Origin: Acidobacteriota bacterium
GTDB lineage: Bacteria; Acidobacteriota; UBA890; WLXD01
NCBI GenBank assembly: GCA_965205505.1
Contig: CBDBHB010000007.1
Span: 544,001 to 608,000 of the forward strand
Direction of reading: 5' to 3'
DNA length: 64,000 bases
Shown: piece by piece, positions 27,964 through 55,246 of the stretch
How positions within the stretch are numbered: position 1 is the stretch's first letter
Layout: every line of letters starts with the position of its first letter
Notes under the pieces: model-generated
What the model was told of the DNA's origin: nothing
The model's input: the letters and a program-made list of their open reading frames with translations, nothing else
Databases searched by the model: none
Translations under genes and position numbers: made by a program

Positions 27964-28108
27964 TTCTTGCTAAACTGCGGGCACAGTTTGGGCACAATCG
28001 GCCTCACAAGATCCACCGTGCGGCTCGTAAGTGCCCATGAATAAGGGGGCTCGTAGCTCAGCTGGATAGAGGAGCGGACTGCTAGTCCAAACGGGCGCAG
28101 TTGGTTTC
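27964..28108 (+). repeat. att-like junction A: conserved left arm plus degenerate tRNA-Arg 5' half (28047-28085)
   Basis: TTCTTGCTAAACT, GGGCACA-gttt-GGGCACA, CGTAAGTGCCCATGAATAA, then GGGCTCGTAGCTCAGCTGGATAGAGGAGCGGACTGCTAG. Confidence 0.88.
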
Positions 28109-28214
28109 AGAGGCTGGGCAACGCTATCTGGGAAATCCCGGATACTGTGCCGTCAGGGGACGCAGCGTGGCCGCGGAGCATGCACCAACACCAGGACGAG
28201 AACCGAATTAACTG

Positions 28215-28985
28215 ATGGTCGACGCGGTGCTCACTGACGTCGAGGACGGGATCCGGACGATTAGTTTGAACCGGCCGGACTGCCTCAACGCGATGAACCG
28301 TTCCCTGATCGAGGGTGTTCGCGCCAGCTTCGCGCACGCCAACCGCGATCCGGAGACGAAGGTCATCATCTTCACCGGAGCCGGCAAGGCCTTCTGCGCC
28401 GGCGACGACCTGGACGAGAACCCGCCCCGTGGCGACGAGCCGGCCGTGCGCCCCATGGTGGAAGAGCTGCAGCAGTGCACCCGCGAGATCGTCTTCGGGC
28501 CAAAGATTGTCGTCGGCGCCATCAACGGCTGGGCCGCGGGCGGAGGCTTGGAGTGGGCCATCAACTGCGACCTGACCCTGTGGGCCGAGAGCGCCCGGCC
28601 GTTCTTTCCTGAGATCAAGCTGGGAGTATCGGTGACCGGAGGGGTCACTGCCCTGTTGCCACGGATTGTCGGGTTGGTGAAGGCGCGCGAGATGATGCTG
28701 TTCGGTGCCAAGCTCGGTGCAGCCGAGCTCGCCGGGATGGGGCTGGCCTGGCGGGTCGTGCCCGACGCAGAGCTCATGGACGAGGCCCGCACGGTTGCCG
28801 CCGAGATCGCCGCCCTGCCACAGCGACCCGTGACTGAGATGAAGCGGATGCTCGCGCGGGTCACGATGGCCGAGCTCGAGACAGCGTTGCAGGTGGAGAC
28901 CGAGACGGCGATCCGCGGCGCCCTGAGCCCGGAGGTTGCCGACGGGCTACGGGCTTGGCAGGAGCGGAAACGTGGCGCCTCGTGA
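28215..28985 (+). CDS. Enoyl-CoA hydratase/isomerase family protein
   Basis: 'LNRP..LNA', 'AFCAGDDL', 'AINGWAAGGGLE', 'PE..LG'. Confidence 0.92.
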   Translation: MVDAVLTDVEDGIRTISLNRPDCLNAMNRSLIEGVRASFAHANRDPETKVIIFTGAGKAFCAGDDLDENPPRGDEPAVRPMVEELQQCTREIVFGPKIVVGAINGWAAGGGLEWAINCDLTLWAESARPFFPEIKLGVSVTGGVTALLPRIVGLVKAREMMLFGAKLGAAELAGMGLAWRVVPDAELMDEARTVAAEIAALPQRPVTEMKRMLARVTMAELETALQVETETAIRGALSPEVADGLRAWQERKRGAS

Positions 28986-28989
28986 GGAG

Positions 28990-29048
28990 TCAACGGATGC
29001 TGAGGAACTCGTAGGCCGCCGTGATTTCCTTGAACCTCTTTTCCGTCG
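28990..29048 (-). pseudogene. Tiny J-domain (DnaJ-like) C-terminal fragment
   Basis: Reads 'TEKRFKEITAAYEFLSIR*'. Confidence 0.45.
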
Positions 29049-29164
29049 GCTTGACGAGTTCGGATTAAACGCGAATGTACCATTACCGATTCCGTAGGTT
29101 GCGGGTGCCGCTGCCTACCCCGGCGGCAAGAATGCAGCCCGATCAAAGAGGAGGAGGGGAGACG

Positions 29165-30904
29165 ATGCCGTTAGACAGGCTCCGCGGGAGGCTGCTCCGG
29201 ATTGCTTGGGCCGCAACCGCTGTCCTGGCCGCTGTCTCTGCCGTCGGCTGTAGCACCGGACGCTCGGCAGTGCAGGCCGACCTGCTGCTCTCCCACGGGA
29301 TAATCTACACGGTCGATGCGGAACGTTCCCGGGCCGAGGCCGTCGCCATCGCCGACGGCGCAATCGTCTACGTGGGCGACGCGGACGGCGCGGTGGCGCA
29401 TCAAGGTCGAGACACGCGGGTGATCGACCTCGGAGGGCGCCTGGTGCTCCCGGCGTTCCAGGATTGCCATATCCATCCCATCTCTGGCGGGATTGAGGCA
29501 CTCACGGTCAACCTGAACGGGTTGGGCACCGTTGAAGCGTACGCGCAGGCAATCGCGGCCTACGCGGAAGCTCATCCGGACGAGCCGTGGATTACCGGCG
29601 GCGGCTGGTCCGTATCCGTCTTCGGTCCAGGGGCGGTGGCTGGCAAGGAGATCATCGACGCCGTGGTGCCGGACCGTCCTGTGTACCTGTCATCTTCCGA
29701 CGGTCACACGGGCTGGGCCAACACCAAGGCGCTGGAGGCGGCGGGTATCACCGCCGACACTCCGGACCCGGTCAGTGGTCGCATCGATCGCGATCCAACC
29801 ACGGGCGAGGCGATCGGTAGCCTGCAAGAAGCCGCGATGGCTCTGGTCAGGGCCCACGTTCCGCCGACAGACCTCGACAGTCGCCTGGCGGGCCTGCGAT
29901 TCGCCGTCGACATGCTCAACGGATACGGCATCACATCAATCCAGGTTGCCTCAGCCCGGCGACCGAATCTGGAGGCATATCGAGAGCTCGATGAGCGCGG
30001 TGAGCTCACATTGCGCGTGGTCGCGTCCCTGCGGTGGGACCGCCAGCGGGGCGAAGAGCAGATCGAGGACATGCTGGAGTTGCGCGAGGAGTTCACGCGC
30101 GGGCGCGTCCGAGCGACGACCGTCAAGATCATGCAGGACGGCGTCATTGAGAACTTCACCGCCGCCTTGCTGGAACCGTACCTCCAGCAGGACGGCAACG
30201 GCAATCGCGGTTTTCCCATGGTGGACCCCGAGGCGCTCAAGAGCGCTGTCACCAACCTGGATCGAGAGGGGTTCCAAGTTCACTTCCATGCCATCGGTGA
30301 CGCCGCTACACGTCAATCGCTCGACGCGGTCGAGGCCGCACAGATGCAAAACGGGGATCTCGGGCATCGCCACCACATCTCGCACCTGGAACTGATTCAC
30401 CCCGACGACGTGCCTCGGTTTCAGCAGCTTCAGGTGATTGCCAACTTCCAGCCCCTATGGGCGGCTTCCAGCCCGCATATCACCGAGTTGACCATCCCGT
30501 ACCTGGGTCCCGAGCGAAGCCAGTGGCTTTATCCACTCGGCAGCGTGCTGGATACCGGAGCGATGCTGGCATTCGGAAGCGATTGGTCGGTGTCGACGGC
30601 CAACCCCTTCCCACAGATCGAAACGGCGCTAACGCGCCAGGGCGGCCAGGCCGAGGAACCGTTCCTGCCGGAGCAGCGCATCGACCTGGCTAGCGCCGTC
30701 GAGGCATTCACCATCAACGCCGCGTTCGTCAACGGCATCGAGGAGCAGACCGGATCGATTGAGGTCGGCAAGCTTGCCGACTTGATCGTCGTCGATCGCG
30801 ACGTCTTCGCGATCGATCCGCGTGACATCTCGGATACCCAGGTACTCCTCACCCTCATGGAAGGTGTGCCGGTTCACGGCGACCTCGAGGACCTGGAGCA
30901 GTGA
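29165..30904 (+). CDS. Amidohydrolase 3 family (YtcJ-like) lipoprotein
   Basis: 'AVGC' lipobox; 'FQDCHIH', 'KIMQDG', 'HAIGD', 'GSDW', 'GSIEVGKLAD'; paralog of 21879-23624. Confidence 0.9.
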   Translation: MPLDRLRGRLLRIAWAATAVLAAVSAVGCSTGRSAVQADLLLSHGIIYTVDAERSRAEAVAIADGAIVYVGDADGAVAHQGRDTRVIDLGGRLVLPAFQDCHIHPISGGIEALTVNLNGLGTVEAYAQAIAAYAEAHPDEPWITGGGWSVSVFGPGAVAGKEIIDAVVPDRPVYLSSSDGHTGWANTKALEAAGITADTPDPVSGRIDRDPTTGEAIGSLQEAAMALVRAHVPPTDLDSRLAGLRFAVDMLNGYGITSIQVASARRPNLEAYRELDERGELTLRVVASLRWDRQRGEEQIEDMLELREEFTRGRVRATTVKIMQDGVIENFTAALLEPYLQQDGNGNRGFPMVDPEALKSAVTNLDREGFQVHFHAIGDAATRQSLDAVEAAQMQNGDLGHRHHISHLELIHPDDVPRFQQLQVIANFQPLWAASSPHITELTIPYLGPERSQWLYPLGSVLDTGAMLAFGSDWSVSTANPFPQIETALTRQGGQAEEPFLPEQRIDLASAVEAFTINAAFVNGIEEQTGSIEVGKLADLIVVDRDVFAIDPRDISDTQVLLTLMEGVPVHGDLEDLEQ

Positions 30905-31054
30905 GAAGCGCTACGCGGCGGGCAGCAGCGGTCGACAGAATCGCGAATCCATGTTAGATAGCGCGCCTTTGCCGTTGGCCAGAGCTTATCGCGTGACCGA
31001 ACACCGGTTATCTGGGAAATTCCCGGGTCAAGACGCCAACCTGATAGGTGAGAA

Positions 31055-32539
31055 ATGAAGACCAGACCGGTGCGAGCGTTCATCTTCATGTGCCTGGCCT
31101 TGCTCACGGCTGTGATGGCGGTGTGGACGTCTCCGGCAGCCGCGCAGTGGGCACAAGCGCCGCCGCGCGAGGTCGTGATCACCGGCGGCTGGCTGTTCGA
31201 CGGCGTTGGCGACGCGCGCGTCCGCAACACTGGGATCGTCATCCGTGACGGCAAGTTCGTCGAGGTCGGCGCCGACCTCAGCGGCCGCTATTTTCCGGCC
31301 GCCCGGATGATCGAGCTCGATGACGGCGCCACGATCTTGCCCGGGATGATCGATTTGCACGGCCACCTCAACATGAACATGGTGGGCGTCGGGCGGGCCG
31401 AGGAGGTCACATACAACTCGATCATCTTCCTGGCCAACGGTGTCACCGCCACCTGGTCGGCGGGAGAGTTCTTTCCCGAGCGCGTCATCGAGGCGCGCGA
31501 CCGTATCGACCGCGGTGAGGCTATCGGTACCCGCCTCTTCGCTTCGGGGCCGTACTTCGGTGCCTTCCGGTGCGAATACCAGATCAAGACGGCGGAGGAC
31601 GACTGCATCGCGTGGCCAAACGACATTACCGAACAAGAGATTCGCGCCGAAGTGGACTACTGGGCGCAGCGCGGCGTACGCAGCATCAAGATCAAGCAGG
31701 CGACGCCCGAGGAGATGCGCATTCTCATCGACCAGGCGCATCGCCGGGGCATGACCACGACCAGTCACCTTGGTAACTACGCGGGGTCCTACGACGTCGA
31801 GCCCGATGAAGCCATCGCCATGGGACTGGACCGGATCGAGCACAGGATCACGAGCGGGAGGGGTGACGATCCGGCTGAGCTGGAGCGCATGATCAACCTC
31901 TTTCTCGAGGAGGGCGTGTATCTCGACTCCAACCTGCAGATGTACTCCCGCTATGACGGGGACCCCACCGGCCACCCGTCGCTCGACCTGGTGTGGGCGG
32001 ACGAATACGAGTTCTTCACGCCGTACGCGCAGCAGCGGATTCGTGCCCGAAAGGCGGCGTCCGGGGCCGAGCCGGGGAGCGAGCACGTCGTGTCGAGGAG
32101 TTCCCGCCGGCACATCGCCGAGCTCGGCGCCCTGTTCGAGTCGGGTGGCGGCGACCTCATCATCGTCGGCACCGACGAGCCGACCTCCGGTCCGTGGCTG
32201 CCAGGCTTCGCCTACCACCGTGAGCTCATGATCATGGTCTCTGCCGGGTTGCCCCCGGCGGCGGTGCTCAAGGCCGCAACCATCAACGGAGCGCGGGCGC
32301 TCGGGGTAGTCGACCGGCTCGGGTCGATCGAACCCGGCAAGCTCGCCGATCTGTACGTCGCTGAGGGCAACCCACTGGAGGATATCTCCACCGCGCGCAA
32401 CGTGCGCCTGGTGGTGAAGGCGGGGGTGGTCTACGACCCGGCGGAGCTGCTTGAGATGGCCAAGGGCAAGATCGGCCCCTCCGGACCGGATGACCACACT
32501 GCCTGGGAGCTCGTGGTCAAGCCGTTGCGACGCCGCTAG
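31055..32539 (+). CDS. Amidohydrolase family protein, exported
   Basis: Signal peptide; 'LPGMIDLHGH', 'GTD', 'AATINGA..LG...LGSIEPGKLADL'. Confidence 0.88.
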   Translation: MKTRPVRAFIFMCLALLTAVMAVWTSPAAAQWAQAPPREVVITGGWLFDGVGDARVRNTGIVIRDGKFVEVGADLSGRYFPAARMIELDDGATILPGMIDLHGHLNMNMVGVGRAEEVTYNSIIFLANGVTATWSAGEFFPERVIEARDRIDRGEAIGTRLFASGPYFGAFRCEYQIKTAEDDCIAWPNDITEQEIRAEVDYWAQRGVRSIKIKQATPEEMRILIDQAHRRGMTTTSHLGNYAGSYDVEPDEAIAMGLDRIEHRITSGRGDDPAELERMINLFLEEGVYLDSNLQMYSRYDGDPTGHPSLDLVWADEYEFFTPYAQQRIRARKAASGAEPGSEHVVSRSSRRHIAELGALFESGGGDLIIVGTDEPTSGPWLPGFAYHRELMIMVSAGLPPAAVLKAATINGARALGVVDRLGSIEPGKLADLYVAEGNPLEDISTARNVRLVVKAGVVYDPAELLEMAKGKIGPSGPDDHTAWELVVKPLRRR

Positions 32540-32569
32540 CTGGTCGTCGTTCGCATAGCCTTCCTCACC

Positions 32570-33961
32570 ATGAAACTCCGAACCTGGCGAAGTCCCCGCG
32601 GAGCACGGCGCATGATTCCTGTCTGTGCTCTCCTCCTTCTCATGATCGCGGGTAGTGCTGCAGTCCCCAGCACGACCCACAATCAAGCTGGCGTCACCCC
32701 CCTCACGGAAGGAAGCGATTGGCCGCGCTTCCTCGGACCGACCGACGACGGCAAGTCCCCGGAAACCGGGATTCTCACGGACTGGGGTGAGTCAGGTCCG
32801 CCGCTGGTTTGGGAGCACGTCGCTGGGGAGGGCTACGCCGGCGCGGTGGTGGCCGAGGGGCGGCTGTTCTTTTTCGATCACCACGATGGCCAGGCTCGGC
32901 TGGTTTGCCTGGATCCCGAGACCGGTGCCGAGGTGTGGAGGAGCGAGCACCCCTCCGTATACCAGGACTTCTACGGCTACAGTCGCGGCCCACGCACCGC
33001 GCCGGTGGTGGACGGCGAGCGAGTATTCACCTTTGGCGTCGAGGGCACGCTCCGCGCCCACCACGTGACCGACGGCCGCGTGCTCTGGGAGGTCGCTACC
33101 GCCGAGCGTTTCGGCGTCGTGCAGAACTTCTTCGGTGCGGGCAGCTCGCCGGTCGTCGAGGGCGATCTTCTGATCGCGATGGTGGGCGGTAGCCCGCCAG
33201 GCAGCGGCGGGATCCACTCGGGCCAGGTTGCGGGCAACGGCACGGGGATCGTTGCGTTCGACAAGGCGACCGGTGAAGTCCGCTATGCGCTCAGCGATGA
33301 GCTCGCCGGCTACGCCAGCCCCGTGATCACGACGATTGCCGACAGGCGCTGGGGCTTCGTGTTCGCCCGCGGAGGCCTCGTCGGCTTCGACCCGACCAAC
33401 GGGGCCATCGACTTCCACTTCCCGTGGCGGGCGCGCCCGCTGCAGAGCGTCAATGCCTCCAACCCGGTGGTCGTCGACGACACGGTGTTCATCACCGAAT
33501 CCTACGGCCGCGGCAGTGCGCTGCTGCGGGTCAAGCCCGGTGGCTACGAAGTCATCCGGCAGGACGGGCGGCGGAACCAGAGCCTGGCGACCCACTTCGG
33601 CAATGTCGTATCCCAGGATGGGATCCTGTACGGATCGCACGGCCGCCACTCCGGCGCGGCGGAGTTGCGCGCCGTCGACCACGCCACCGGCGAGATCAGG
33701 TGGAGCGAGCCCGACCTTCTATGGACGACTCTGCTCCACGTGGACGGACATCTCATAGTCCTGAGCGAGGACGGCCGCTTGCACCTGGTAGAGGTCACAC
33801 CGGAGGCCTACCGTGCCAAAGCGTCCGTCAAGCCGGCCCGGGCCGACGGGACCGCACTCCTGAGAATGCCCTCCTGGAGCCCGCCGGTACTGTCGCGCGG
33901 CCTCCTCTACCTGAGGGGAAGGGACAGGCTGATCGCGTTGGAGTTGATCCCCGGACGTTAG
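32570..33961 (+). CDS. PQQ-like (BamB-type) beta-propeller repeat protein
   Basis: 'DWPRFLGP..DG.S.E', 'GPR..P.VDG', repeated 'D..TG...W', 'P.L..G.LYLR'. Confidence 0.8.
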   Translation: MKLRTWRSPRGARRMIPVCALLLLMIAGSAAVPSTTHNQAGVTPLTEGSDWPRFLGPTDDGKSPETGILTDWGESGPPLVWEHVAGEGYAGAVVAEGRLFFFDHHDGQARLVCLDPETGAEVWRSEHPSVYQDFYGYSRGPRTAPVVDGERVFTFGVEGTLRAHHVTDGRVLWEVATAERFGVVQNFFGAGSSPVVEGDLLIAMVGGSPPGSGGIHSGQVAGNGTGIVAFDKATGEVRYALSDELAGYASPVITTIADRRWGFVFARGGLVGFDPTNGAIDFHFPWRARPLQSVNASNPVVVDDTVFITESYGRGSALLRVKPGGYEVIRQDGRRNQSLATHFGNVVSQDGILYGSHGRHSGAAELRAVDHATGEIRWSEPDLLWTTLLHVDGHLIVLSEDGRLHLVEVTPEAYRAKASVKPARADGTALLRMPSWSPPVLSRGLLYLRGRDRLIALELIPGR

Positions 33962-34044
33962 TCGTAGGCCATTCGATTCGTCCGCCGCTACGCTACGGTC
34001 GCACGCGGGTGCGGCGATGGAGATCCGTCTCGCGCAGTGATGCC

Positions 34045-34431
34045 TCAGGGTCCGGGCGGCTCGTAGAGCTCGAGTCCGGGCAAGTCGCTGAAGTCGGCGC
34101 GGTTCAAGGTCCACAGCGCTGCAGCCTGCACGAGAGCACATGCGGCAATGGCGAGATCGATCTCTCGGCCGCGAGGACGCGCTACCTCCGCGTAGAGCTC
34201 GGCCGCGAGCCCGGCCTCGCGTTCACCGAAGGCCGCTGCCTGTCGTCGCGGGAACAGCGCCTCTTGCGCCTCGAGCTCGGGGATCGTCCGTGGCCCCCGC
34301 AGCCACTCGAAAAGCACGAGCGAGGGGATCATGATCCGCTCGCCGGCCGCGATCGACCGTCGCAAAGCGCCAGCCGAGCGTCGCGGCCCGGTGAGCGCGT
34401 CGACGAGGACGGAGGTGTCCAGCGCGATCAA
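34045..34431 (-). CDS. vapC: PIN-domain toxin
   Basis: 'IALDTSVLVD', 'DLAIAACA', 'LWTLN..DF'. Confidence 0.9.
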   Translation of the reverse strand: MIALDTSVLVDALTGPRRSAGALRRSIAAGERIMIPSLVLFEWLRGPRTIPELEAQEALFPRRQAAAFGEREAGLAAELYAEVARPRGREIDLAIAACALVQAAALWTLNRADFSDLPGLELYEPPGP

Positions 34432-34724
34432 TGCTTGCTTCCACCACCGGAGCGCCGCCCGCCGACGCGACGCGATTCACGGATCGCGACGAGCTCGTCA
34501 TCCACCTCGCGGACCGGTCGCTCGGGGATCTTGCCGACCAGCTCGTCGAAGGTCTTCAGCATGCGCAATCGCTCGCCCTCGCTCAGCCGCCCGATGCGCT
34601 CGGCATAGTCGTTGATCGCCTCGCGAACCACCTGGCTCTTCGGCTTTCCCAGTCGCTCAGCCGCTTCTTCGAGGCGAGCAACCGTCGCCGCGTCAATGGT
34701 GTAGGTGACCTTACGTGTGCCCAT
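34428..34724 (-). CDS. vapB: Ribbon-helix-helix antitoxin
   Basis: 'KVTYTID....LE..A...G.PKS.VVREAI'; 4-bp overlap with the PIN gene. Confidence 0.85.
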   Translation of the reverse strand: MGTRKVTYTIDAATVARLEEAAERLGKPKSQVVREAINDYAERIGRLSEGERLRMLKTFDELVGKIPERPVREVDDELVAIRESRRVGGRRSGGGSKH

Positions 34725-34841
34725 ACTGATGCCATATTACCATAGTCCAGCACAACCAGACCGCCAGCATCCGTCAGAAAGGGGCCGAGCTGCGCCGCGG
34801 GGCGCAGTCCACAGCCTGCAATTAGCAGTTCTGCATACGGG

Positions 34842-34973
34842 TGATGCCGGCCGCCGGCCGGCGATTGCGTAGAGGATCCCTGGAGAAGACAGCGCACCTG
34901 TGATTGCATCCAGGCATCTTCACCTCACCGACGCGACTAGCTGAGTCGGCGGTGTCTATCTGGGACATTCCCG
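34842..34973 (+). repeat. ~130-bp degenerate upstream module (second copy 44356-44485)
   Basis: Shared AGGATCCCTGGA, TGTGATTG.ATC and TCGG.GGTG.CTATCT blocks in the same order. Confidence 0.6.
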
Positions 34974-34998
34974 CTGACGCATTGCGGAGGAACTGAAC

Positions 34999-36573
34999 AT
35001 GAGCGATCAGATATCAGCGCCGAGTCGTCGTTTCGGCACTCGTCGGACGCCATTCTTGTTTGTCTCTTTTCTCTTCCTCTCTCTTCCAATGTTCGCCGAA
35101 GCCCAAGGCAAGCCGAATATCCTCTACATAGTGGTCGACAACCAACCCGCCTCGATCCTCGGCGTTTATGGAAACCCGGATGTCAGGACGCCCAATATTG
35201 ATCGGCTAGCCAACGAAGGAATGCGTCTTACCCGTGCCTTTGCCGTACACGGTATGTGTTCTCCAACACGCGCAACACTGCTGACCGGGCTCCTACCTTC
35301 TCAACATGGCGTTCACGACTGGCTAGATGACGGAAAGATGGAGAATTGGCCCGAAGATTGGAATGCGATCAGAGAGTACAGAACATTGCCGTACACGTTG
35401 AGAACTCGAGGATATCAGACATCATTGATCGGCAAATGGCACCTAGGTCAGCCACGTCCGCCGGACGACTGGTTCGATTATTGGGTGACGTTCAATCTGG
35501 GCCATACCGTCGATTTCTGGTCCAATGAGATCAATGACAACACCAGAACGTACAGATTAGAGGATAAGCACAGCGTCGAGTTCTTTGCCGACAAAGCAGT
35601 CGCATACTTGGAGGACTATGATCACCAGAGGCCCTTCTTCCTGCTGGTTACCTTCAACGGTCCTTATCTGAACCCACCAACAAACCTCGGTCCCGCCAAG
35701 AACCCTCATTATGCGTACTACAAGGACGAAGAGTTTCCTTCGTTTCCTAGAAACAGGATCAACGACAGGATACTCGAGCGGTTAAGGCCACCGTACTCCG
35801 GGTGGTACGCCAGCTTGGCACGCATGCACAACGACCAAGCAACAATGGCTAATGTCGCGTCGCAAAACACGATGGTGGACGAAGGTGTCGGCCGTCTATT
35901 GGCAGCACTGAAGGAGAATCAACTCGAAGACGACACGTTAGTGATTTACACGAGTGATCAGGGGAATTTCTACGGACAACATGGCCTCTGGGGTCATACT
36001 GACTACGCTTTTCCGGCAGGTTTGTACGATACGCCAATGAACATACCGTTCATTGCTCGCTATCCAAGAACCATCAAGAAAGGGCAAGTGAGTGATCTGC
36101 TCGTTGGGCAATACGACCTCATGCCCACAATTCTTGATCTGGCTGGGTTTGCGGATGTGGAAATAGCTGACTCTCCTGGAAGGAGTTTCGCTGCCCACCT
36201 ACGAGGTAGGAAGCTCGAGGCGTGGGCCGACGCCGTGTATATGGATCAAGAGGCGACGCGTGCAATCAGAACCGATCGTTATTCATATTGGAAACGGCTG
36301 AAAGGTACGGGTGAGCACGAGCTCTACGATCTACAAGACGATCCTGAGCAGATGCACGATCTATACGGGAGTCCTGACCACGCCGAAGTAGTTGCGGAAC
36401 TGGATCGAAGACTCACGACATTCTTCAACGCCCATTCCGATGTTGAGTACGATCTTTGGCGAGGCGGAACCGTAAAGGGATCCACGGACTTCGCGCAGGC
36501 TTTCAAGTCGCTTTACGGTGACCAGTGGGAGGAACAGGCAGAAGTAAAACCCGCCTTTAGAGAGAAGGACTAG
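34999..36573 (+). CDS. Sulfatase (Cys-type), exported
   Basis: 'KPNIL', 'CSPTRA' (CxPxR), 'GKWHLG', 'TSDQG'; lower GC than flanks. Confidence 0.92.
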   Translation: MSDQISAPSRRFGTRRTPFLFVSFLFLSLPMFAEAQGKPNILYIVVDNQPASILGVYGNPDVRTPNIDRLANEGMRLTRAFAVHGMCSPTRATLLTGLLPSQHGVHDWLDDGKMENWPEDWNAIREYRTLPYTLRTRGYQTSLIGKWHLGQPRPPDDWFDYWVTFNLGHTVDFWSNEINDNTRTYRLEDKHSVEFFADKAVAYLEDYDHQRPFFLLVTFNGPYLNPPTNLGPAKNPHYAYYKDEEFPSFPRNRINDRILERLRPPYSGWYASLARMHNDQATMANVASQNTMVDEGVGRLLAALKENQLEDDTLVIYTSDQGNFYGQHGLWGHTDYAFPAGLYDTPMNIPFIARYPRTIKKGQVSDLLVGQYDLMPTILDLAGFADVEIADSPGRSFAAHLRGRKLEAWADAVYMDQEATRAIRTDRYSYWKRLKGTGEHELYDLQDDPEQMHDLYGSPDHAEVVAELDRRLTTFFNAHSDVEYDLWRGGTVKGSTDFAQAFKSLYGDQWEEQAEVKPAFREKD

Positions 36574-36848
36574 CAGGCCGTGGTGAAAGTGTGGTGGGTC
36601 TGGCGACAGGGTCTTGCGAGGCGCAGGCAAGGAGAGAGGAGGAGGCGATGGTTACCCCATCGTTGACGACGAACGACGTAGCATACGCGCGCAACCCCCT
36701 GTCGCCCGAATGGTTACGGCGACTTGGGGCCATCTGCGGCGTTGGCCTTCCTCGACGATCGCGGGAGCATCGCCAGCGTCAGGCCGCCTTGCATCTCGCC
36801 CCAACTCGTCGTAACCAGACCCACCACACTTTCACCACGGCCTGCTAG
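36570..36848. mobile_element. MITE family A, complete copy (inverted relative to 10507-10785)
   Basis: 34-bp inverted ends with CTAG; sits on the sulfatase stop codon. Confidence 0.9.
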
Positions 36849-37046
36849 CGTCGTCCCATCAAGACCATCAGCCACCTTCAACCCCCATGCGCTGGAGGTG
36901 ACGCTCGCCGATGAACATGGTGGTGCCCAATCGGGGCTCGTTGGTTCCTCGCGGGGACAATCCTACGCATATTTCGGGACCAACATCGCCGGCACCGGAT
37001 CAGCGCCCGGTCTAGCGGTTGGCTCTCCCCGGCCCGCCTGAGCGTT

Positions 37047-45247: not shown

Positions 45248-45353
45248 TCGTGGGGCCCGCGCCGGCCTTCGGACCGGCCCCTGGGCACAGGGACCATTGG
45301 CGGCCCGGTGAAAGCTCCCGGTTTCTGCCACACCCGTGCACTAGGAAACACAG

Positions 45354-47330: not shown

Positions 47331-47511
47331 CTGATTGGCTCCGCATGTACCCTTGTCCGGTCATCGATCACGCCACCGCTTTAGGGTTCCTCCGATATCG
47401 GACAGACCGCGGATTCGTGCTTACGTGGGCTCGTTGCGACTGGCCGAAGCGAATCGCGAGTGATCACCTCGTGCGGATGGAGCCCGCTACCTACCCCAGA
47501 CGTGGGCGGAC

Positions 47512-47773
47512 TTCTTGCTAAACTCCGGGCACAATCCGGGCACAGTCCGAAACCGCCCGTTCGTAAGTGCCCATGAATAAAGGGAGCGCCCGTAGCTCAG
47601 CTGGATAGAGCAGCGGACTTCTAAGTTTCCGCCCCGTTTTTGGACAGAGCTGTATCGGGCTGGATTCCTTTGGAATCAACGGCGGTTACGCAGATTCCTT
47701 TCCAGCTAGATATATCTAGGGATATACAGAATCCGGCGCTGTTTGGAAGAGAATCTGCAAGGATTGTGCAAGC
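47512..47773 (+). repeat. att-like junction C: left arm, tRNA-Arg 5' half (47586-47624), right arm
   Basis: Half identical to junction B half; GGGCACA-atcc-GGGCACA on the left; TGCAAG at 11-bp period at the right end. Confidence 0.92.
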
Positions 47774-47879
47774 AGGCCGAGACCACGATCGGAGTTCGGG
47801 TTCGCGAATCTCGGGATCCGGATCCAGAGCGCTCGGCCGGTCGGGCCAGTCGGTCCGTGATATAGAACTCGAGCAGAAG

Positions 47880-48536
47880 CTAGGTTGCCGCAGGGCTGCT
47901 GAGCACGTAGTAGATAACCAGAGCGACGATCCCAACAAAGCCGGCCCAAAGCGATTTTCGCAAGGCCGCGTACTTCCTCTGGCACACGCCGGCGAGCTCG
48001 TGGACGTGACGGAGTGTTTCACCCACGAGCTCCGCTTCGGCGAGCCCTACTACATGGTCTGAGTACTCGGCTGCTGAACCATACTCTGAGACCGCATCGA
48101 AAAAGAGGGCCCCTCGCTTTGATCCTTGCTGTCGCGGAACCACAACCCAAAGTGATAGCAAGACGGAAACGCTGATGCAGACGCTAGCTACGACACTCCA
48201 ACCGTCGGCAAAAGCCCATGTGCGCGGGTCCCGCATGGACCCGCTGATGGGAGAGAGTGTGTGCAGATACGACAGGAGCGCGATTCCAATAGCGAAAATA
48301 AAGCCTGCCTTGCGATCAGCAAGGCGGATGAAGTCACGAACGTACGCGTGAGCATGCCAAGCGAACCGCGCGGTGTCGTCCCGAATCACCCCAGCAGTGC
48401 CGGCGAACGCCCCCACATCGCTTTCCCGAGGTACAGCTGGTTCGGTCAGTGGGAGCGCTTTGTCATGAAGCTCGGTGGGTGTCTCGATCGCCGTCGGTTC
48501 GTTCTTTCTTCTCTGATGGTCGTTTCGATCAGACAT
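47880..48536 (-). CDS. pycTM: Pycsar-type transmembrane effector (PycTM / DUF5706-like)
   Basis: 'IR.AD.KA', TM segments, 'V.PR....G.LFF..V', 'LA.VC.RKY..L'; 2 bp downstream of a class III cyclase. Confidence 0.75.
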   Translation of the reverse strand: MSDRNDHQRRKNEPTAIETPTELHDKALPLTEPAVPRESDVGAFAGTAGVIRDDTARFAWHAHAYVRDFIRLADRKAGFIFAIGIALLSYLHTLSPISGSMRDPRTWAFADGWSVVASVCISVSVLLSLWVVVPRQQGSKRGALFFDAVSEYGSAAEYSDHVVGLAEAELVGETLRHVHELAGVCQRKYAALRKSLWAGFVGIVALVIYYVLSSPAAT

Positions 48537-48538
48537 CT

Positions 48539-48945
48539 CTAGATGAGCCTAGCCCAGCGCCCGTCATAGCGGTACAGGGGATAGCTGAGCCCAGAAAGCC
48601 GGTAAGTCCAGCCGGTCTCCAGGGGTAAACGAGTCGCGAATGCCCGGCTCCAGTCTTGTGGAAGCTCGAGCGTTGCTTTCTCACCGAGCACGATGTCACC
48701 CGGCTTAGCGTGCTTGAGCATCTTGGAAGCGAAGTTGGCGGCGTCCCCCACAGCGACGACCGCGTTGAAGCGCCTTGCGGCACCCAAGCGGGCGAGAGTT
48801 ACGAAGCCGTGATCAATGGAAATCCTGAACCGTATTTCTGGGACAGCGGCTCTCCGAAGTACGGGGTTAACCAGATGTTCTGTCGCGGCCATCATCGTCA
48901 ACGCCGCGGCCAGGGAGCGATGCGACCCACCTGCGGGCGGGCTGC
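48539..48945 (-). pseudogene. pycC: Class III nucleotide cyclase (PycC-like), 5' part removed at IS3 end
   Basis: 'FRISIDHG', 'VGDAANFASKM', 'YPLYRYDGRW'; abuts the IS inverted repeat at 48946. Confidence 0.72.
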
Positions 48946-50205
48946 TGACCTGACCCCCCAAAACGGATCCAGAGGTAATCTCACGATCTGGGTCGAAAAG
49001 GGGAGGTCAGAATGCCGACGAAGAGGCACAGCGCCGAGCAGATCGTACGCAAGCTCCGGGAGGCTGAAGTGGAGCTGGCGCAAGGCGGGACGGTCAAGGA
49101 TGCCTGCCGCAAGCTAGCGATCACCGAGCACACCTACTATCGGTGGCGGCGGGAGTACGGGGGGCTGAAGGTCAACCAGGCCAGAAGGCTCAAGCAGCTG
49201 GAGAAAGAAAACGCCCGGCTCAAGAAACTGGTGGCGGAGAAAGAGCTCGACCTGTCGATCCTGAAGGAAGTCGCGGAGGGAAACTTCTGAGCCCAGCTCG
49301 ACGGCGCGAGGCGGTGGCGCATGTACAGGGGCGGCTGGGCGTCTCCGAGAGGCGGGCGTGCCGGGTACTGAAACAACCACGCACGACACACAGGTACATG
49401 CCAAGAGAACCGGGCGATGAGCAGATGTTGACGGAGCGGATCGTGGATCTAGCCCGACAATACGGGCGCTACGGGTATCGGCGAGTGACGGCGTTGTTGC
49501 GTATGGAGGGCTGGTGGGTGAACCACAAACGAGTGCAGCGTATCTGGAGGCGTGAGGGGCTGAAAGTACCGACAAAGCAGCCCAAACGAGCCCGGCTGTG
49601 GCTCAGCGATGGCTCGTGCATCCGGCTGCGACCACAGCGCAAAGATCACGTCTGGGCGTATGACTTCGTCCATCACCGGACGCACGAGGGTCGGGCTATG
49701 AGGCTGCTGACGATCGTCGATGAGTACACACGAGAAAGCCTGGCGATCGACGTGGCACGGAAGCTCAACTGTGAGGACGTGCTCGAGCGGCTCGGGTGGT
49801 TGTTCGTGCACCGGGGCATACCTGAGCACATCCGGTCCGATAACGGACCGGAGTTCACCGCCGAGGCGGTTCGCGACTGGCTCGGTAGGCTCGGTGTGGG
49901 CACGCTGTTCATCGAGCCGGGCTCGCCGTGGGAGAACGGCTACGTGGAGAGCTTCAACGGCAAGCTCCGAGACGAGCTGCTCAACGGCGAGATCTTCTAC
50001 ACGCTCAAGGAGGCAAAGGTTCTGATCGAGAGATGGAGGCAGCAGTACAACCGCATGCGACCGCACAGCTCGTTGGGCTACCGACCACCGGCCCCGGAGG
50101 CGCTGTTGTTGAAGCCGGCTACGCTCCGCTTCGCCGGCCTCAACAACCCCTTGTCAGCACCGAGTTACTGAGATAAGACGTGGTACTAACCGTGGGGTCA
50201 GGTCA
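48946..50205 (+). mobile_element. IS3 family insertion sequence (1260 bp)
   Basis: Ends TGACCTGACCCC / GGGGTCAGGTCA; orfA/orfB; no target duplication. Confidence 0.93.
49012..50171 (+). CDS. IS3 transposase OrfAB (-1 frameshift at GGGAAAC near 49278-49284)
   Basis: OrfA HTH 49012-49290; OrfB 'WAYDF', 'RSDNGPEF', '[12 protein letters not shown]'. Confidence 0.92.
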
Positions 50206-50264
50206 CTCCGGCACCGGCGCATCCGTGGTCGGCGCGCACCCGGTGACGACTACGAGAAGGGCGA

Positions 50265-50792
50265 TCAGAACGTGGCGCAAACGCGGGCCTCCTCCCACAA
50301 GACGGCTCGGTGGTTGAAACGCACCTTGATCGCCTCGATCACCGCTTCCACCGCTGCGACGAACGAGTCGCGGTCCGAGAGTGGATGCAGGATCACGATC
50401 ATCCGTCCGGCGCTCGTACCGGCACGGCCGTCGCGACGCTGCCACCAACCCGTCGTTTCGATCACGCTGCCCCCGTCCGGGAAGTGCGGAATGAGAACTT
50501 CGTTGACCAGCGAGTCCCAGCGCTCGTCGGGTGCGCCGTCGGTGTTGCGGCCGCTCATGTAGAGAGCCGCCCGGAGGTAGGGCTGCAGTGGTGCCGGACA
50601 CACCGACGCCAGCGTCTCCGCAGGCGTGCCGCGCGGCGCATTCGCGGTAGACGCGCAGCCGGCGATTGCCACGGCGGTCGATAGCGAGCCGACCAGCAAC
50701 ACCGGCGTCCATACCGATTTCGGTGCGGCACGACCGTGCGGCCCGCTACGGCGCGCCTCGGTGCTTCGCGCCCGGAGCTGCCATCGGTGCAT
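50265..50792 (-). CDS. DUF3574-like lipoprotein
   Basis: 'IAGC' lipobox; 'W..LV.EV..P.FPDG..V....G.W', 'RF...AVL'; TGATG overlap with the upstream fragment. Confidence 0.7.
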   Translation of the reverse strand: MHRWQLRARSTEARRSGPHGRAAPKSVWTPVLLVGSLSTAVAIAGCASTANAPRGTPAETLASVCPAPLQPYLRAALYMSGRNTDGAPDERWDSLVNEVLIPHFPDGGSVIETTGWWQRRDGRAGTSAGRMIVILHPLSDRDSFVAAVEAVIEAIKVRFNHRAVLWEEARVCATF

Positions 50793-50971
50793 CAGGCCTG
50801 CCACCGAGTCCGACCGCCGACCACCGTGCGCACCACGCCGATCTCCTTGATGCCATCGGGGTCGACATCGTGCGGGTCCGCCTTGAGCAGCACGAAATCG
50901 GCCAGCTTGCCGGCAGTGATCGAGCCCTTGATGTCTTCCTCGAACGAGGCGTAGGCACCGTGCATGGTGCA
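50792..50971 (-). pseudogene. C-terminal fragment of an amidohydrolase 3 gene
   Basis: 'GAYASFEEDIKGSITAGKLADFVLL.ADPH...IKEI.VVRTVVGG'. Confidence 0.8.
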
Positions 50972-51559
50972 GAATAGTTTACAGGAACTTCTAGTAGACT
51001 ATCACCTCACTATTCCCACCATTAAATCGGGGAATAAAGCGAACTTCTCCGGACCTCTGGGGAGCCCTGAACACACCGAGCGCCAGGGCCGCAATCGCAC
51101 CCGGCGAGAGCCGACAAGATACAGCACATTGGGATTAAGATAGAGAACGCTAAGCTTAAGAAAGAGAACCCTAAGCTTGAGCTAGAGGACAAGCCTAAGT
51201 GGACGCCCTGTGAAATCCTCTGGATTCATAAGATTCACTCGTTCTGGTTCAACGCCACAGCAAGTTTGTTCGGCTCCGCAGCGCTCCCGATACTTGGTCA
51301 CGTAGCATGTAGACTGGATAGCGTCAATAAGATGACCATCGGAACAGCAGCACTACTGGCTTTCTTGGCTCTTCTTGCCTTCGGTGGAATAAGGGCATCC
51401 TGCCTGAAATGACCTACCGAGAGGGCTTGTTCAGTTTCTTCCGGAAGAGTAGACCCGAGTCCTCTTGACTCTAGTCGGTCTATTCAGCGACTCTGTCGGC
51501 TAGGCGGAGCTTGAAAGACGAAGAATAAGAACGACGGAAGAGAACAGAGGAAGTGTTAA

Positions 51560-52327
51560 GTGGAATCCAGTCCGACCGATAGCAAGACATGGCACTACGA
51601 CCGGCACGGGGTTCCGCTTCTGACTGCTAAGCAGGTCGAAGAGATCGCCCAGGATTTTCTGCAAACTTACTGCCCGACGCATCTGTCCAATCCAGGCACG
51701 CTGCCAGTCTCTACAATTCTCCAAAAAGTTCAAGCCCGGGATGGGCTGCGTGTATCGTTTCCTGACTTGGGACAAACTGATGGCAAAAGAATCCGTGGTC
51801 GGATCACGTTCTCGCAGCAACGAATTGACCTTGATTCTGGACTGCTGTCGGACGACCGATCTAAGTGGTTCGCCTTCACAGCGATGCACGAGTTAGGGCA
51901 TTGGGTTCTTCACCGGTACAGACCCATTCGTTGGGCAAAGGCTGGCGTTCTCACCGACGGTCGCCCGAGGAGACTAAGAAACCGACTAGAGATCGGTGCG
52001 CCCGATTGGATAGAGTGGCAAGCAAACAAGTTTGCAGCGTTCGCGCTCATGCCTCGTCGTCCGTTTCTCCGGGCGCTCGAACAAGTTCAGAGCGAGCAAG
52101 GATTGTCGCGCCGCGGCGAAGTGTGGGTAAACAACAGCAATGTCGCTGACTACAAAAAGACGTACGCAGGCCTGGCAAGAAAATTCGGCGTATCTATGAC
52201 TGCTGTCCGGTATCAGCTTAACGATTTACAGCTTCATAGGGGAAATGAGGAGCGCTACGAGGCCAACACATGGAAAAGGGTCACCGCTGCGCATGAGACA
52301 ATGGTGACCCTAGGAGTGGACTGCTGA
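51560..52327 (+). CDS. ImmA/IrrE family metallo-endopeptidase
   Basis: 'FT..HELGHW', 'EWQAN.FAA..LMP', 'LA.KFGVS..A...L'. Confidence 0.88.
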   Translation: MESSPTDSKTWHYDRHGVPLLTAKQVEEIAQDFLQTYCPTHLSNPGTLPVSTILQKVQARDGLRVSFPDLGQTDGKRIRGRITFSQQRIDLDSGLLSDDRSKWFAFTAMHELGHWVLHRYRPIRWAKAGVLTDGRPRRLRNRLEIGAPDWIEWQANKFAAFALMPRRPFLRALEQVQSEQGLSRRGEVWVNNSNVADYKKTYAGLARKFGVSMTAVRYQLNDLQLHRGNEERYEANTWKRVTAAHETMVTLGVDC

Positions 52328-52805
52328 GATAAGGACACACCCTGGTGTACCCTACGTGCCGGATGAGCGCGCTCACACTGCCGCCAGCGGTATCAAGCTC
52401 CGCGTTCAACTTGTCGTCCAACTCCTCCCCGCGGCTCGCCTTCGGCTCGAGCCGGCCAGCCTGAACAGATCGCCAGACCTGCCCAGGGAAATTCGTGAGA
52501 GAAAAGGACAGTGCCTGAACGTCGTCTTGTGCTTTGTGGATCAGTGGGAGGACTTCCCGGAAGATACTGATTCGGAGCTGGTCTCGAAGCATGCTCCGCT
52601 GTGCCGTGAATGCACTCTCGGTGCTTCGTCGGAATTCAAGCGCGCCTAACCGGACCAGCAGGAGCCAGCCAATCACGGTCAGCACGTGCAGGCGACGGCG
52701 CTTCACGTGTGGATCATCAGGCTGGCGAGAAAGACACCAAGCACCTGCGAGCTTAACGGCTATACACGGATCAGCGCTCAGCTCGTGATCTCGATGCGAG
52801 AGGAA

Positions 52806-53888
52806 CTAGTGTAGCGTCTCTAAAATGGCTTTACAGCGATTAACTTTGTCGATGATCTGCTGGGCGGAAGCACTCCAAACATAGGGCTTGGGATCGTCGT
52901 TGTAGTTGGCAATGAAGTTCTCGATGTTTTGGATGAGTGCTTGGACGGAAGGAAACGCAGCTCGTCGGACGCTTTTTGTTGTCAGCTCAGCGAACCAGCG
53001 CTCCACCAGGTTCAGCCACGAGGAGCTTGTTGGAATGAAGTGCAGGTAAAAGCGACGATGCCGAGACAACCACTTCTTCACATTGGGGTGCGTGTGGGTG
53101 CCGTAGTTGTCAACGATCAGATGCAGATCTAGTTCCTGGGGGAACTCGCGGTCGAGCTTGCGTAGGAACTTCAAGAACTCTTGATGCCGATGACGCGGCA
53201 GACACTGACCGATGACGGTTCCGTCCAGCATGTTCAGGGCGGCGAAAAGGCTCGTCGTACCGTGGCGCTTGTAGTCGTGGGTCATGGTTCCGGCACGGCC
53301 CTTCTTGAGCGGCAACGACGGCTGCGTGCGGTCCAAAGCCTGAATCTGAGACTTCTCATCCACGCACAGCACTACAGCCCGATCTGGCGGATTCATGTAC
53401 AGGCCGACCACGTCGGTGAGCTTGTCCACGAAGTGGGGATCCTTGGAGAGCTTGAACGTCTTGACCAAGTGAGGCTTGAGTCCGTGAGCGTCCCAGATCC
53501 GCTGGACCGTGGCGGCACTGACCCCTTGCGCCTTGGCCATCGTTCGGCACGACCAATGAGTGGCGTTGGGTGGCTTGGTGTGCAACGTTGCTTCGACGAT
53601 CTGTTTGATCTTGTCCCGGGAGATGGACCGGGGTCGTCCACGTCCCGGCCTGGTCTGCCCCAGCGCCACGGGACCTGCTTTCTCGAACCGCCTTCTCCAC
53701 ATGATCACAGTCGGCCGGCTGATGCCGAGCTGATCAGCAATCCCGCTATTGGACTCGCCATCTGCCGCCAGCAGGATGATCCCGGCACGAGTCGCTACTG
53801 ACTGTGGTGTGCTGGGGGCTCGGAGCCAGGCTTCCAGAACGTCTCGATCCTTGTCCGCGAGCGCTATCGGTTCTGCTTTTGTGGCCAT
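52806..53888 (-). CDS. IS630 transposase
   Basis: 'THWS.R.MA', 'CVDEKSQIQALDRTQP', 'HDYKRHGT', 'VDNY.TH', 'SSWLNLVERWF'. Confidence 0.95.
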   Translation of the reverse strand: MATKAEPIALADKDRDVLEAWLRAPSTPQSVATRAGIILLAADGESNSGIADQLGISRPTVIMWRRRFEKAGPVALGQTRPGRGRPRSISRDKIKQIVEATLHTKPPNATHWSCRTMAKAQGVSAATVQRIWDAHGLKPHLVKTFKLSKDPHFVDKLTDVVGLYMNPPDRAVVLCVDEKSQIQALDRTQPSLPLKKGRAGTMTHDYKRHGTTSLFAALNMLDGTVIGQCLPRHRHQEFLKFLRKLDREFPQELDLHLIVDNYGTHTHPNVKKWLSRHRRFYLHFIPTSSSWLNLVERWFAELTTKSVRRAAFPSVQALIQNIENFIANYNDDPKPYVWSASAQQIIDKVNRCKAILETLH

Positions 53889-53948
53889 GCGAAGCACAAT
53901 ACAATGGTCTTCATCTAATGTAAAGCTATTTACGATACACTATACTAG
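52806..53948 (-). mobile_element. IS630 family insertion sequence
   Basis: Imperfect inverted ends CTAGTGTAGCGTCTCTAAAATGGCTTTACA / TGTAAAGCTATTTACGATACACTATACTAG. Confidence 0.92.
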
Positions 53949-54050
53949 GCTTGGTAGAGGAGGGAGAGAGTGAGGGAATGCTAACTGCGCTCCTGGCTTT
54001 GTCCTCAGACGAAGAGGGCGACACGGCGCGAAACGACGAGGCCCCGAACG

Positions 54051-55142
54051 GTGGGTGAGATACGCAAACGCGGCAACGTCTGGTGGATCCGGTACTACCG
54101 AAACGGCCGACGCCACGAGGAAAGCTCCGGCAGCAAGCGGAAAGGCGATGCGGAGAGGCTGCTGAGAATCCGAGAAGGCGACATCGCCAAGGGCTTGCCT
54201 GTTACCGCGCGGGTCGGGCAGCTTCGCTTCGATGAGGCCGCGGCCGACGTGGTCACCGACTACCGGGTCAACGGCAAGCGAACGCTGCGGGACGTCGAGC
54301 ACCGCGTCCGGCTACACCTCGAACCGTTCTTCGGCGGTCGCCGGATGGCAACGATCACGACGGCCGACGTTCGCGCGTACACTTCGCACCGCCAAGGCGA
54401 GGGCGCGGCCAACGCCACAGTCAATCGTGAGCTCGCGATCGTGAAGCGCGCGTTCCGGCTGGCGGTCCAGGCGCGCAAGCTGCTCCACATGCCGCACATT
54501 CCCATGCTGCGCGAGGCCACCGCCCGAACTGGTTTCTTCGAGCGAGACGAGTTTGAAGACGTTCGCGATGCCCTGCCCGAGCCACTTCGCGGCATAGTGA
54601 CGTTCGCCTACCTCACCGGATGGCGGGTGCCGTCGGAGGTCCTGCCGTTGCGCTGGGCACAGGTCGATCGTAACGCGTGCACCGTCCGCCTCGAACCCGG
54701 CACGACGAAGAACTCCGAGGGCCGCACCCTACCCTACGATTCACTGCCCGAGCTCGGCGCCGTCGTTGCGCGGCAGTGGCAGGAGCATGAGCGCCTAGCG
54801 GCTGCGGACGTCCTGTGCCCATTCGTGTTTCATCGTCGCGGGAAGCCGATCAAGGGATTTCGCAAGGCGTGGGCGACGGCTTGCGAAGCTGCCGGTTGTC
54901 CGGGCAGGCTGCCCCATGACTTTCGACGGACGGCGGTCAGAAACCTGGTTCGCGCCAGCGTGCCAGAGAAGGCGGCAATGGCAATCACCGGCCATAAGAC
55001 TCGCAGCATCTTCGATCGATACAACATCATCAACGAGGCTGATCTCAGGAGCGCACTCGGGAAGCTCCCCGCTCCGACGGGGACAGAAACGGGACAATCA
55101 GACCGTACAGGCCGTTTGGTGAACTTCTCTGATTCCTCCTAA
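54051..55142 (+). CDS. int: Tyrosine recombinase / phage-type integrase
   Basis: Catalytic R (TGWR), K (TKN), HxxR (HDFRR), H (TGH), Y (RYN); basic N-terminal arm-binding-like segment; ends 30 bp before the tRNA. Confidence 0.95.
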   Translation: MGEIRKRGNVWWIRYYRNGRRHEESSGSKRKGDAERLLRIREGDIAKGLPVTARVGQLRFDEAAADVVTDYRVNGKRTLRDVEHRVRLHLEPFFGGRRMATITTADVRAYTSHRQGEGAANATVNRELAIVKRAFRLAVQARKLLHMPHIPMLREATARTGFFERDEFEDVRDALPEPLRGIVTFAYLTGWRVPSEVLPLRWAQVDRNACTVRLEPGTTKNSEGRTLPYDSLPELGAVVARQWQEHERLAAADVLCPFVFHRRGKPIKGFRKAWATACEAAGCPGRLPHDFRRTAVRNLVRASVPEKAAMAITGHKTRSIFDRYNIINEADLRSALGKLPAPTGTETGQSDRTGRLVNFSDSS

Positions 55143-55172
55143 ACTTCTGATATATAGATATTTTTATCCTAC

Positions 55173-55246
55173 GCGCCCGTAGCTCAGATGGATAGAGCAG
55201 CGGACTTCTAATCCGCAGGTCGGAGGTTCGAATCCTCCCGGGCGCG
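55173..55246 (+). tRNA. tRNA-Arg (anticodon TCT)
   Basis: Acceptor GCGCCCG/CGGGCGC, D arm GCTC/GAGC, anticodon GCGGA-CTTCTAA-TCCGC, T arm GGAGG-TTCGAAT-CCTCC; CCA not fully encoded. Confidence 0.97.

Follow-up and report, generated by a model that had tools for sequence, protein, structure and literature searches.

A tandem array of cargo modules marked by displaced 5′ tRNA halves upstream of the sole tRNA-Arg(TCT) gene in an Acidobacteriota genome

We analysed a 64,000-nt stretch of the genome of an Acidobacteriota bacterium (GTDB lineage UBA890; WLXD01), namely positions 544,001 to 608,000 of the forward strand of contig CBDBHB010000007.1 in assembly GCA_965205505.1 (hereafter the window), in which a tRNA-Arg(TCT) gene is preceded by a row of partial copies of itself. 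The intact gene (55173-55248, + strand) is the sole tRNA detected in the window by ARAGORN and Rfam, where Rfam found nothing besides tRNA, and, of the genome's 55 tRNA genes, the only one with a TCT anticodon. Three 39-nt copies of its 5′ half lie upstream on the same strand, designated copy A (28047-28085), copy B (39277-39315) and copy C (47586-47624). All three are in direct orientation and stop with the final base of the anticodon loop CTTCTAA; the spacings from A through B and C to the intact gene are 11230, 8309 and 7587 nt. Copies B and C are identical and differ from the intact gene only by a C for A at tRNA position 16. Copy A, detected at a looser threshold, is degenerate, with 5 of its 39 positions changed in an ungapped alignment compared with 1 of 39 in B and C. 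The 39-mer, allowing up to three mismatches, has three matches in the whole 5.98-Mb genome, all within the window, and a search of 100 shuffles gave no match. A preliminary description of this DNA had reported the three direct-orientation halves at spacings of about 11.2, 8.3 and 7.6 kb, had judged the most distal copy to be the most decayed, and had proposed a whole-genome search with the 39-mer; the first two points are confirmed, and the search restricts the matches to the tRNA-Arg(TCT) locus instead of scattering them over the genome.

The halves delimit three modules. Module E1 (28086-39276, 11.2 kb) carries an enoyl-CoA hydratase gene with two amidohydrolase genes, a pyrroloquinoline quinone (PQQ)-propeller gene with a VapBC-like PIN/RHH pair, and a sulfatase gene with a FAD oxidoreductase gene, together with a copy of a miniature inverted-repeat transposable element (MITE) at 36567-36848. 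Module E2 (39316-47585, 8.3 kb) encodes DUF1501 and DUF1800 proteins, a HAD hydrolase and a FAD/NAD-binding protein. Its DUF1800 gene (41305-42801, − strand) is divided into two open reading frames (ORFs) of 139 and 354 amino acids, probably by a frameshift or stop. Module E3 (47625-55172, 7.5 kb) has a lower G+C content and, according to the Pfam matches, holds a Pycsar effector PycTM, a PycC fragment beside an IS3 copy, DUF3574, a CapP-like M78 peptidase, an IS630 transposase and the only integrase of the three modules. In the region of the Pycsar anti-phage pair (47880-50205), the PycTM effector gene is intact (47880-48536, − strand), and a 140-amino-acid ORF (48539-48961) matches only about positions 108-190 of the PycC cyclase profiles. 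The block common to the IS3 copies of a related genome, G003, begins at 48946, and the cyclase may have been cut by the IS3 insertion.

The integrase gene (54051-55142, + strand) encodes a tyrosine integrase of 363 amino acids with the domains PF00589 and PF02899. It is co-directional with the tRNA gene and its stop lies 30 nt upstream, as expected from the preliminary description, which had an intact integrase abutting the complete tRNA. The residues R192, H289-x-x-R292, H315 and Y333 fit the tyrosine-recombinase signature, and with all signature residues present the enzyme is predicted to be catalytically complete. A PDB sequence search with the integrase returned no match at 1e-3. Neither PF00589 nor a six-frame search with the integrase revealed an integrase or a remnant of one in E1 or E2, and the window has no other match; remnants of transfer or integration genes were likewise not seen in these two modules. 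No helicase, primase or other replication module, and none resembling a phage-inducible chromosomal island (PICI), is present among the Pfam matches of the ORFs between 26 and 58 kb.

The sequences flanking the halves fall into a small number of types. Hereafter, I denotes the left arm formed by the integrase gene, P and J are other left arms, and R1 to R3 are right arms. The left arms of the three displaced halves, all on the + strand, belong to one family, the P arm, at junctions A (27865-28046, with a core of about 95 nt from 27964), B (39182-39276) and C (47490-47585). The core is 74-91% identical between copies and carries the direct repeat pair GGGCACAG-N3-GGGCACAAT, and the upstream extension seen at junction A is common to G003 modules. 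The left arm of the intact gene is the 3′ end of the integrase gene, with the motif pair GGGACAG-N4-GGGACAAT (55080-55098); apart from this short repeat pair, the P arms show no relation to what precedes the intact gene. On the right side, the R1-type arm at the left end of E1 (28086-28205, + strand) contains short repeats of the GTTGG type and has no second copy in the genome. The R2-type arm at the left end of E2 (39316-39445, + strand) contains repeated TTGTATC-like motifs and is common to two G003 modules; within the genome, its first ~130 nt are confined to this locus. A third type, R3, follows copy C. Run over the genome, profiles of P, R1 and the initial part of R2 gave nothing outside this locus. 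The left and right arms at a half vary independently of each other, and further types occur on either side: across the junctions examined, P is joined to R1, R2 and R3, I to R1, J to R2, a J-like arm to R1, and both P and I to the complete tRNA. This variety of combinations is exactly what recombination within the half predicts. Two scans of wider collections added little to this picture. A pattern scan of metagenomes for the P arm plus half found one contig, whose two sites (locus L095) are letter-identical to G001 loci, and the four matches in the viral contigs scanned are all complete, unrelated tRNA genes.

The closest relative, G004, provides an empty site for the proximal part of the array. 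In that genome, a complete tRNA directly follows the orthologue of the sulfatase/oxidoreductase block and its P arm (94% identity). The window and G004 are homologous up to 39315, the last loop base, so that 39316-55211, comprising E2, E3 and the new half, is a loop-bounded presence/absence unit. The crossover would accordingly lie within the 7-nt anticodon loop, as judged from the blocks of identity. The comparison of modules across relatives that the preliminary description had called for thus yields both a recurrence of the geometry (see below) and loop-bounded presence/absence variation.

An independent empty-site control for mirrored integration is found elsewhere in the same genome. A paralogous integrase gene, 78% identical (C7:19594-20640), ends about 90 nt before tRNA-Lys(CTT), whose displaced 5′ half (positions 1-43) is found 6.5 kb further upstream, 40 nt after tRNA-Arg(CCG). 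This second island of the same mirror geometry (C7:14036-20805, 6.5 kb, locus L096) splits tRNA-Lys(CTT) in a tRNA-His/Arg(CCG)/Lys/Leu(TAG) cluster. In G002, G003 and G005, the tRNA-Arg(CCG), tRNA-Lys and tRNA-Leu genes are contiguous, with tRNA-His preceding them in G002 and G003. Empty sites are therefore available at two loci, the Arg(TCT) site in G004 and tRNA-Lys(CTT) in G002, G003 and G005.

Mirrored arrays recur in four related genomes of the genus or family, with up to eight displaced halves, and the geometry is seen in five separately assembled genomes in all, in two of them in 2-5 contigs. G003 (2 contigs) has eight displaced halves over 85 kb upstream of the intact gene. Its seven proximal modules are 2.5-6.4 kb long and contain 1-4 cargo genes and no recombinase. 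Among the G003 modules, left ends (~150 nt) and right ends (85-395 nt) are alike at 77-95% around unrelated cargo. The last two, M7 and M8, are diverged paralogues (68-77% inside) and not a fresh duplication. G004 has two upstream 5′ halves and one downstream 3′ half (positions 33-76) in the classical geometry. The 5′ fragments (positions 1-39) and this 3′ fragment overlap exactly on CTTCTAA. A tRNA-like sequence of G004 (G004:C5:65609-65685, locus L021) consists of an Arg(TCT) 5′ half with one mismatch joined to a different 3′ half, with the anticodon stem unpaired, and is possibly a hybrid junction. In G005, an integrase gene with a half is followed after 32 kb by an integrase gene with the tRNA. 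Across the arrays of the present genome, G003, G004 and G005, PF00589 occurs in 2 of the 14 fully bounded modules. The other 12 are cargo units of 2.5-11 kb overall with conserved ends, and no integrase remnant was found in any of them.

Relatives of the integrase in public genomes come mostly from Acidobacteriota metagenome-assembled genomes. Their loci were scanned for tRNA genes in 24 of 26 cases, two short ones being left out. The 5′-side geometry, with the tRNA after the integrase stop and in the same direction, was found at 7 of the 24 loci, with SeC, Arg-TCT and Leu-TAA as targets; at 10, the tRNA follows the integrase in the convergent, classical arrangement, and the remaining 7 have no nearby tRNA. 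A tree of 15 rows, each of at least 240 amino acids with an adjacent tRNA (10 others were dropped), implies that the geometry switched about three times. In the supported clade to which the window's integrase belongs, 8 of the 9 rows are co-directional. One integrase clade therefore uses either side of the anticodon loop. The tRNA gene is nearly symmetric about the loop (32 versus 37 nt), so an att site could flip with little change in the spacing between arm and core, and this near-symmetry would explain the use of both sides by the clade.

Sites resembling those of integration host factor (IHF) flank the loop. We scanned with the E. coli consensus WATCARNNNNTTR, which has 87 matches in the genome. 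One match (55140-55152, − strand) lies 62 nt upstream of the loop centre and overlaps the integrase stop codon, and another (55254-55266, + strand) mirrors it 52 nt downstream. Among the 25 sites examined, 8 carry a total of 9 matches, against 0.005 expected per window of the scan, and these lie 51-62 nt before the loop centre when on the − strand and 52-72 nt after it when on the + strand. The IHF-like sites and the arm repeats are candidate sites that may act in the recombination. Consensus scans of all arms for promoters and terminators showed no promoter-like site in any of them, and the tRNA promoter was thus not located. A native 5′ half with a host promoter, which the preliminary description had proposed to look for, was not identified.

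The repeats, their restriction to one locus, the loop-precise boundaries, the empty sites and the mixing of arms at the half are the observations from which our interpretation starts. We consider it likely that the region is an accretion array at the sole tRNA-Arg(TCT) gene, built by tyrosine-integrase recombination in the anticodon loop in mirror-image geometry. An incoming circle would bring an upstream arm and tRNA positions 1-39. After the crossover, the element would lie upstream of the gene, to which it would supply a new 5′ half and necessarily a new upstream control region, and the previous 5′ half would stay behind, further upstream. E3 (47625-55172) would be the most recent and self-sufficient element. 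The A at position 16 is private to the 5′ half of the intact gene, C16 being present in every displaced half here and in the genus, which fits a 5′ half donated by E3. E1 and E2 would be non-autonomous units resembling cis-mobilizable elements (CIMEs), entering or leaving by an integrase of this clade acting in cis or in trans, and later fused or trimmed by loss of internal junctions and MITE-associated rearrangement. Which integrase moved the integrase-less modules, and in what order these events took place, we infer from the patterns described. Serial integration into the loop with older modules pushed upstream, as originally proposed, is thus supported by the relatives, the G004 boundary, A16 and the Lys control; E1 and E2, however, are integrase-less composites and not ordinary islands.

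The locus shows decay and REARRANGEMENT, and both E1 and E2 are composites. G004 joins its FG-GAP block directly to the PQQ/VapBC block, so that an indel spans 27771-32548, which holds the P arm, copy A and R1 together with three genes. At the joint 34766/34769 of the window, G004 has 7.3 kb, a half included. A 43-nt remnant of the P-arm extension stands without a half inside E2 (44081-44123) and suggests that E2 arose from two older modules by fusion; another such remnant, read by eye, occurs just before the sulfatase block of G004. Many block ends lie beside solo ends of a MITE of about 280 bp. This element has 34-nt terminal inverted repeats and 223 terminal-repeat matches genome-wide, with a complete copy at 10504-10785 in addition to that in E1, and solo ends at 4575, 19772 and 27748; solo ends stand at several breakpoints of gene-block rearrangement between species.

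The preliminary description had also supposed that the array continues leftwards into 1-27963. This was not borne out, as no further half, P arm or R arm was found there to the left of copy A. Gene blocks of the window between 8 and 28 kb are found inside the G003 and G004 arrays. The block at 8346 has no half beside it, though its G003 counterpart adjoins a degenerate half. Matches to the P-arm extension at 10851 and 16390 were considered as array remnants and rejected, being part of a repeat of about 75 nt (CGCCTGAAG.CTATCGCC...GGGGATCCA; 10851-10886, 16390-16425 and 39104-39139 in the window) that has more than 20 copies in the genome and is not specific to att arms. For the flanks 1-8340 and 57200-64000, G002-G004 offer no orthologous region from which the core boundaries could be set. 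A pair of Rieske oxygenase genes (23636-25114 and 55669-57189) was rejected as a flank duplication, because they belong to a large paralogous family.

Several observations weigh against the accretion reading or limit it. In contigs assembled by Logan from four runs of three studies, pieces of E2 and E3 occur at high identity and all stop inside the 39-mer (at 39290, 47595-47599 and 55202), and the contigs of these four runs contain no circular form, excision joint or bridging read. The contig joints listed at halves involve other tRNA genes or are separated by unknown letters. One joint in a single run (48640 to 54061) weakly suggests that E3 exists in a form with different cargo. Although its array is the longest and its genome is 96% complete, G003 lacks any homologue of the integrase (E <= 1e-8) and any PF00589 match within the array, and the distal integrase of G004 is truncated to residues 184-363, because of which the arrays may be largely fossil. 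Cargo blocks are shuffled at places without an att site, often beside MITE ends, so that the variation is not site-specific throughout. A perfect IHF consensus is absent from all nine P arms scanned. Finally, the P arm shows no detectable homology to the integrase-bearing arm beyond the short repeat pair, which leaves the mobilisation of P-arm modules by this integrase unproven.

Two explanations deny that insertion took place at all. The repeats might reflect misassembly or unequal crossing-over of a promoter-plus-half unit. The breakage of short-read contigs at the 39-mer indicates that the repeat can confuse assemblers, and the left arms of the last two G003 junctions are identical. However, the cargo differs wholly between modules and the arms between copies have diverged to the 74-91% identity given above; moreover, five separately assembled genomes share the geometry and even M7 and M8 of G003 are only 68-77% alike inside, which makes this explanation highly improbable. 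Equally hard to credit is the idea that the P arm, half and R arm together form a small tRNA-derived mobile repeat, similar to a MITE or a short interspersed nuclear element (SINE), that was inserted between resident genes that never moved. The genome is indeed rich in MITEs, albeit of another family, and its gene blocks are rearranged beside MITE ends. Against this, the P arm and R1 are absent elsewhere in the genome, all copies have one orientation and lie only upstream of the cognate gene, left and right arms are exchanged independently of each other at the half, and there is also a P arm that adjoins a complete tRNA.

Within the accretion reading, the origin of the integrase-less modules can be explained in two ways. 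Each module might once have been an autonomous island, the integrases of E1, E2 and the G003 modules having been lost singly by decay. Serial integrase loss is exactly what the published CIME model describes (PMC5704250), and decay is visible in the degenerate copy A, in the distal integrase of G004 and in the remnants of the P-arm extension without a half inside modules of the window and of G004. On the other hand, the integrase genes of the clade end 7-30 nt from the tRNA, a place where the integrase-less modules have the distinct P arm of about 95 nt, which resembles the integrase gene only in the motif pair. Single losses are also difficult to reconcile with the lack of any remnant in the 12 integrase-less modules and with four consecutive G003 modules of 2.8-5 kb that all show a clean R1-cargo-P layout, and we regard this course of events as rather unlikely. 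Alternatively, and no more than tentatively, the integrase-less units could be a dedicated cassette family, with a conserved left end of ~150 nt, a right end of ~95-330 nt and the tRNA half jointly serving as recombination site, carrying 1-4 metabolic or signalling genes, forming integron-like rows at tRNA-Arg(TCT) and, mirrored, at other tRNAs of the genus, and moved in trans by the either-side integrase clade, for which the near-symmetry of a tRNA gene and its flanking IHF-like sites about the loop would be the reason.

Cargo is also found at other tRNA sites. The PQQ-dehydrogenase/AMP-ligase/hydratase block of one G003 Arg module constitutes, in the present genome, an integrase-less module of 5.1 kb flanked by two tRNA-Leu(CAA) 3′ fragments, and the HAD/oxidoreductase block of E2 is also present in the downstream island of G004. 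The tRNA-Leu(CAA) array (C8:552064-572640) is a classical 3′-side array with two displaced 3′ fragments; its distal module of 5.1 kb has no integrase match, and its arms contain paired repeats, such as GGACACC and GGCACAG, each twice. An Arg(TCT) 3′ half (positions 33-76, 95% identity) lies inverted on the − strand at C7:451765-451808, 147 kb from the gene. A Rieske oxygenase gene 4.3 kb beyond it is 93% identical to one just downstream of tRNA-Arg(TCT), and the inverted half may have been left by an inversion or by a classical island that was relocated. Genome-wide, about 45 tRNA fragments were listed that lie outside tRNA genes, mostly 3′ parts starting near positions 28-35. Two 5′ halves of tRNA-Lys(TTT) (C9:1745436 and 1747438) lie a long way from their gene and point the other way. 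Just upstream of the sulfatase and HAD genes are copies of a 59-nt repeat (34873-34931 and 44388-44446; 73% identity); each copy stands shortly after a suspected fused junction and may mark where one more type of module has its left end.

If the integrase-less modules move as units, the genus would have a cassette exchange built on tRNA halves. This would explain the trade of single metabolic genes among large soil-bacterial genomes, and catalogues that assume one integrase per island would miss it. On a conservative reading, an integrase clade with both geometries, sometimes at the same tRNA species, opens the rule of orientation to study. The locus is also a case of an essential single-copy tRNA whose upstream control region would be supplied by mobile DNA, and it shows how the loss of junctions can turn an array into an ordinary-looking variable region.

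The mirrored geometry itself has precedents. In the Islander report, 159 of 3919 islands have a 5′ fragment and 2083 have an anticodon-centred site (PMC4383910). The reversal noted in the preliminary description is therefore real at this locus and less unusual than it had claimed. Recombination at the 5′-distal position is elsewhere called 'considerably less frequent', with reference to Zhao and Williams 2002 (PMC6563490). The 5′-fragment islands of Islander resemble the present locus in the tyrosine integrase, the crossover in the anticodon loop, the supply of the 5′ part by the element and the displaced fragment upstream in direct orientation. An intact tRNA gene with a cognate 5′ fragment of the same orientation upstream is present here, and an integrase inside the island is found in E3 only. 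The Islander report counts 125 tandems of at least two islands and 4 of at least three, and demands an integrase of its own from each member (PMC4383910), whereas 12 of the 14 bounded modules described here lack one and one relative has eight halves. Tandem islands at the tmRNA gene of Dehalococcoides are reportedly the topic of one paper.

The integrase-less units are most similar to CIMEs, which keep attL and attR, have no integration genes, share their target gene with an integrase-bearing element beside which they stand in tandem, and could in principle move with it (PMC5704250). Like the CIMEs of the Streptococcus ICESt1 family, E1 and E2 have halves with element-type arms at both ends and no recombinase, and they stand in tandem with an integrase-bearing element. 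The described CIMEs, however, are decayed integrative and conjugative elements (ICEs) or integrative and mobilizable elements (IMEs) at the 3′ end of the target, whereas the units described here are small cargo modules on the 5′ side, their P-arm right end is not visibly derived from an integrase-bearing element, and transfer functions are absent throughout. The growth model is the same as that of the Prochlorococcus tycheposons, whose islands grow at tRNA genes by repeated integration, with newcomers pushing older elements outward and partial tRNAs and degenerate remnants scattered among them, tRNA-Arg(TCT) being one of the targets (10.1101/2020.12.28.424599). Tycheposons are defined there by a tRNA-specific tyrosine recombinase together with replication genes (helicase, primase) or a PICI-like module (10.1101/2020.12.28.424599). 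The Pfam matches of E1-E3 include no replication module, which keeps the elements out of that class, and the two systems differ in phylum and integrase clade.

Integrons capture cassettes at folded attC hairpins by means of the IntI integrase, which is encoded on a fixed platform with attI and the cassette promoter. The array resembles them in that an integrase lies beside the insertion point, short integrase-less units each end in a recombination site, and the newest unit is adjacent. It is nevertheless not an integron: the sites are double-stranded tRNA halves flanked by arms, both strands carry cargo, the integrase is part of the newest mobile unit and matches only the general phage-integrase Pfam families (no IntI-specific profile search was made), and G003 has an array without any such integrase. 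The locus is not categorically new, as both accretion and the mirrored geometry are already known. What goes beyond the catalogue are the long arrays of small integrase-less modules with conserved ends, their mirror counterparts at other tRNAs of the genus, and the integrase clade that uses either side of the loop.

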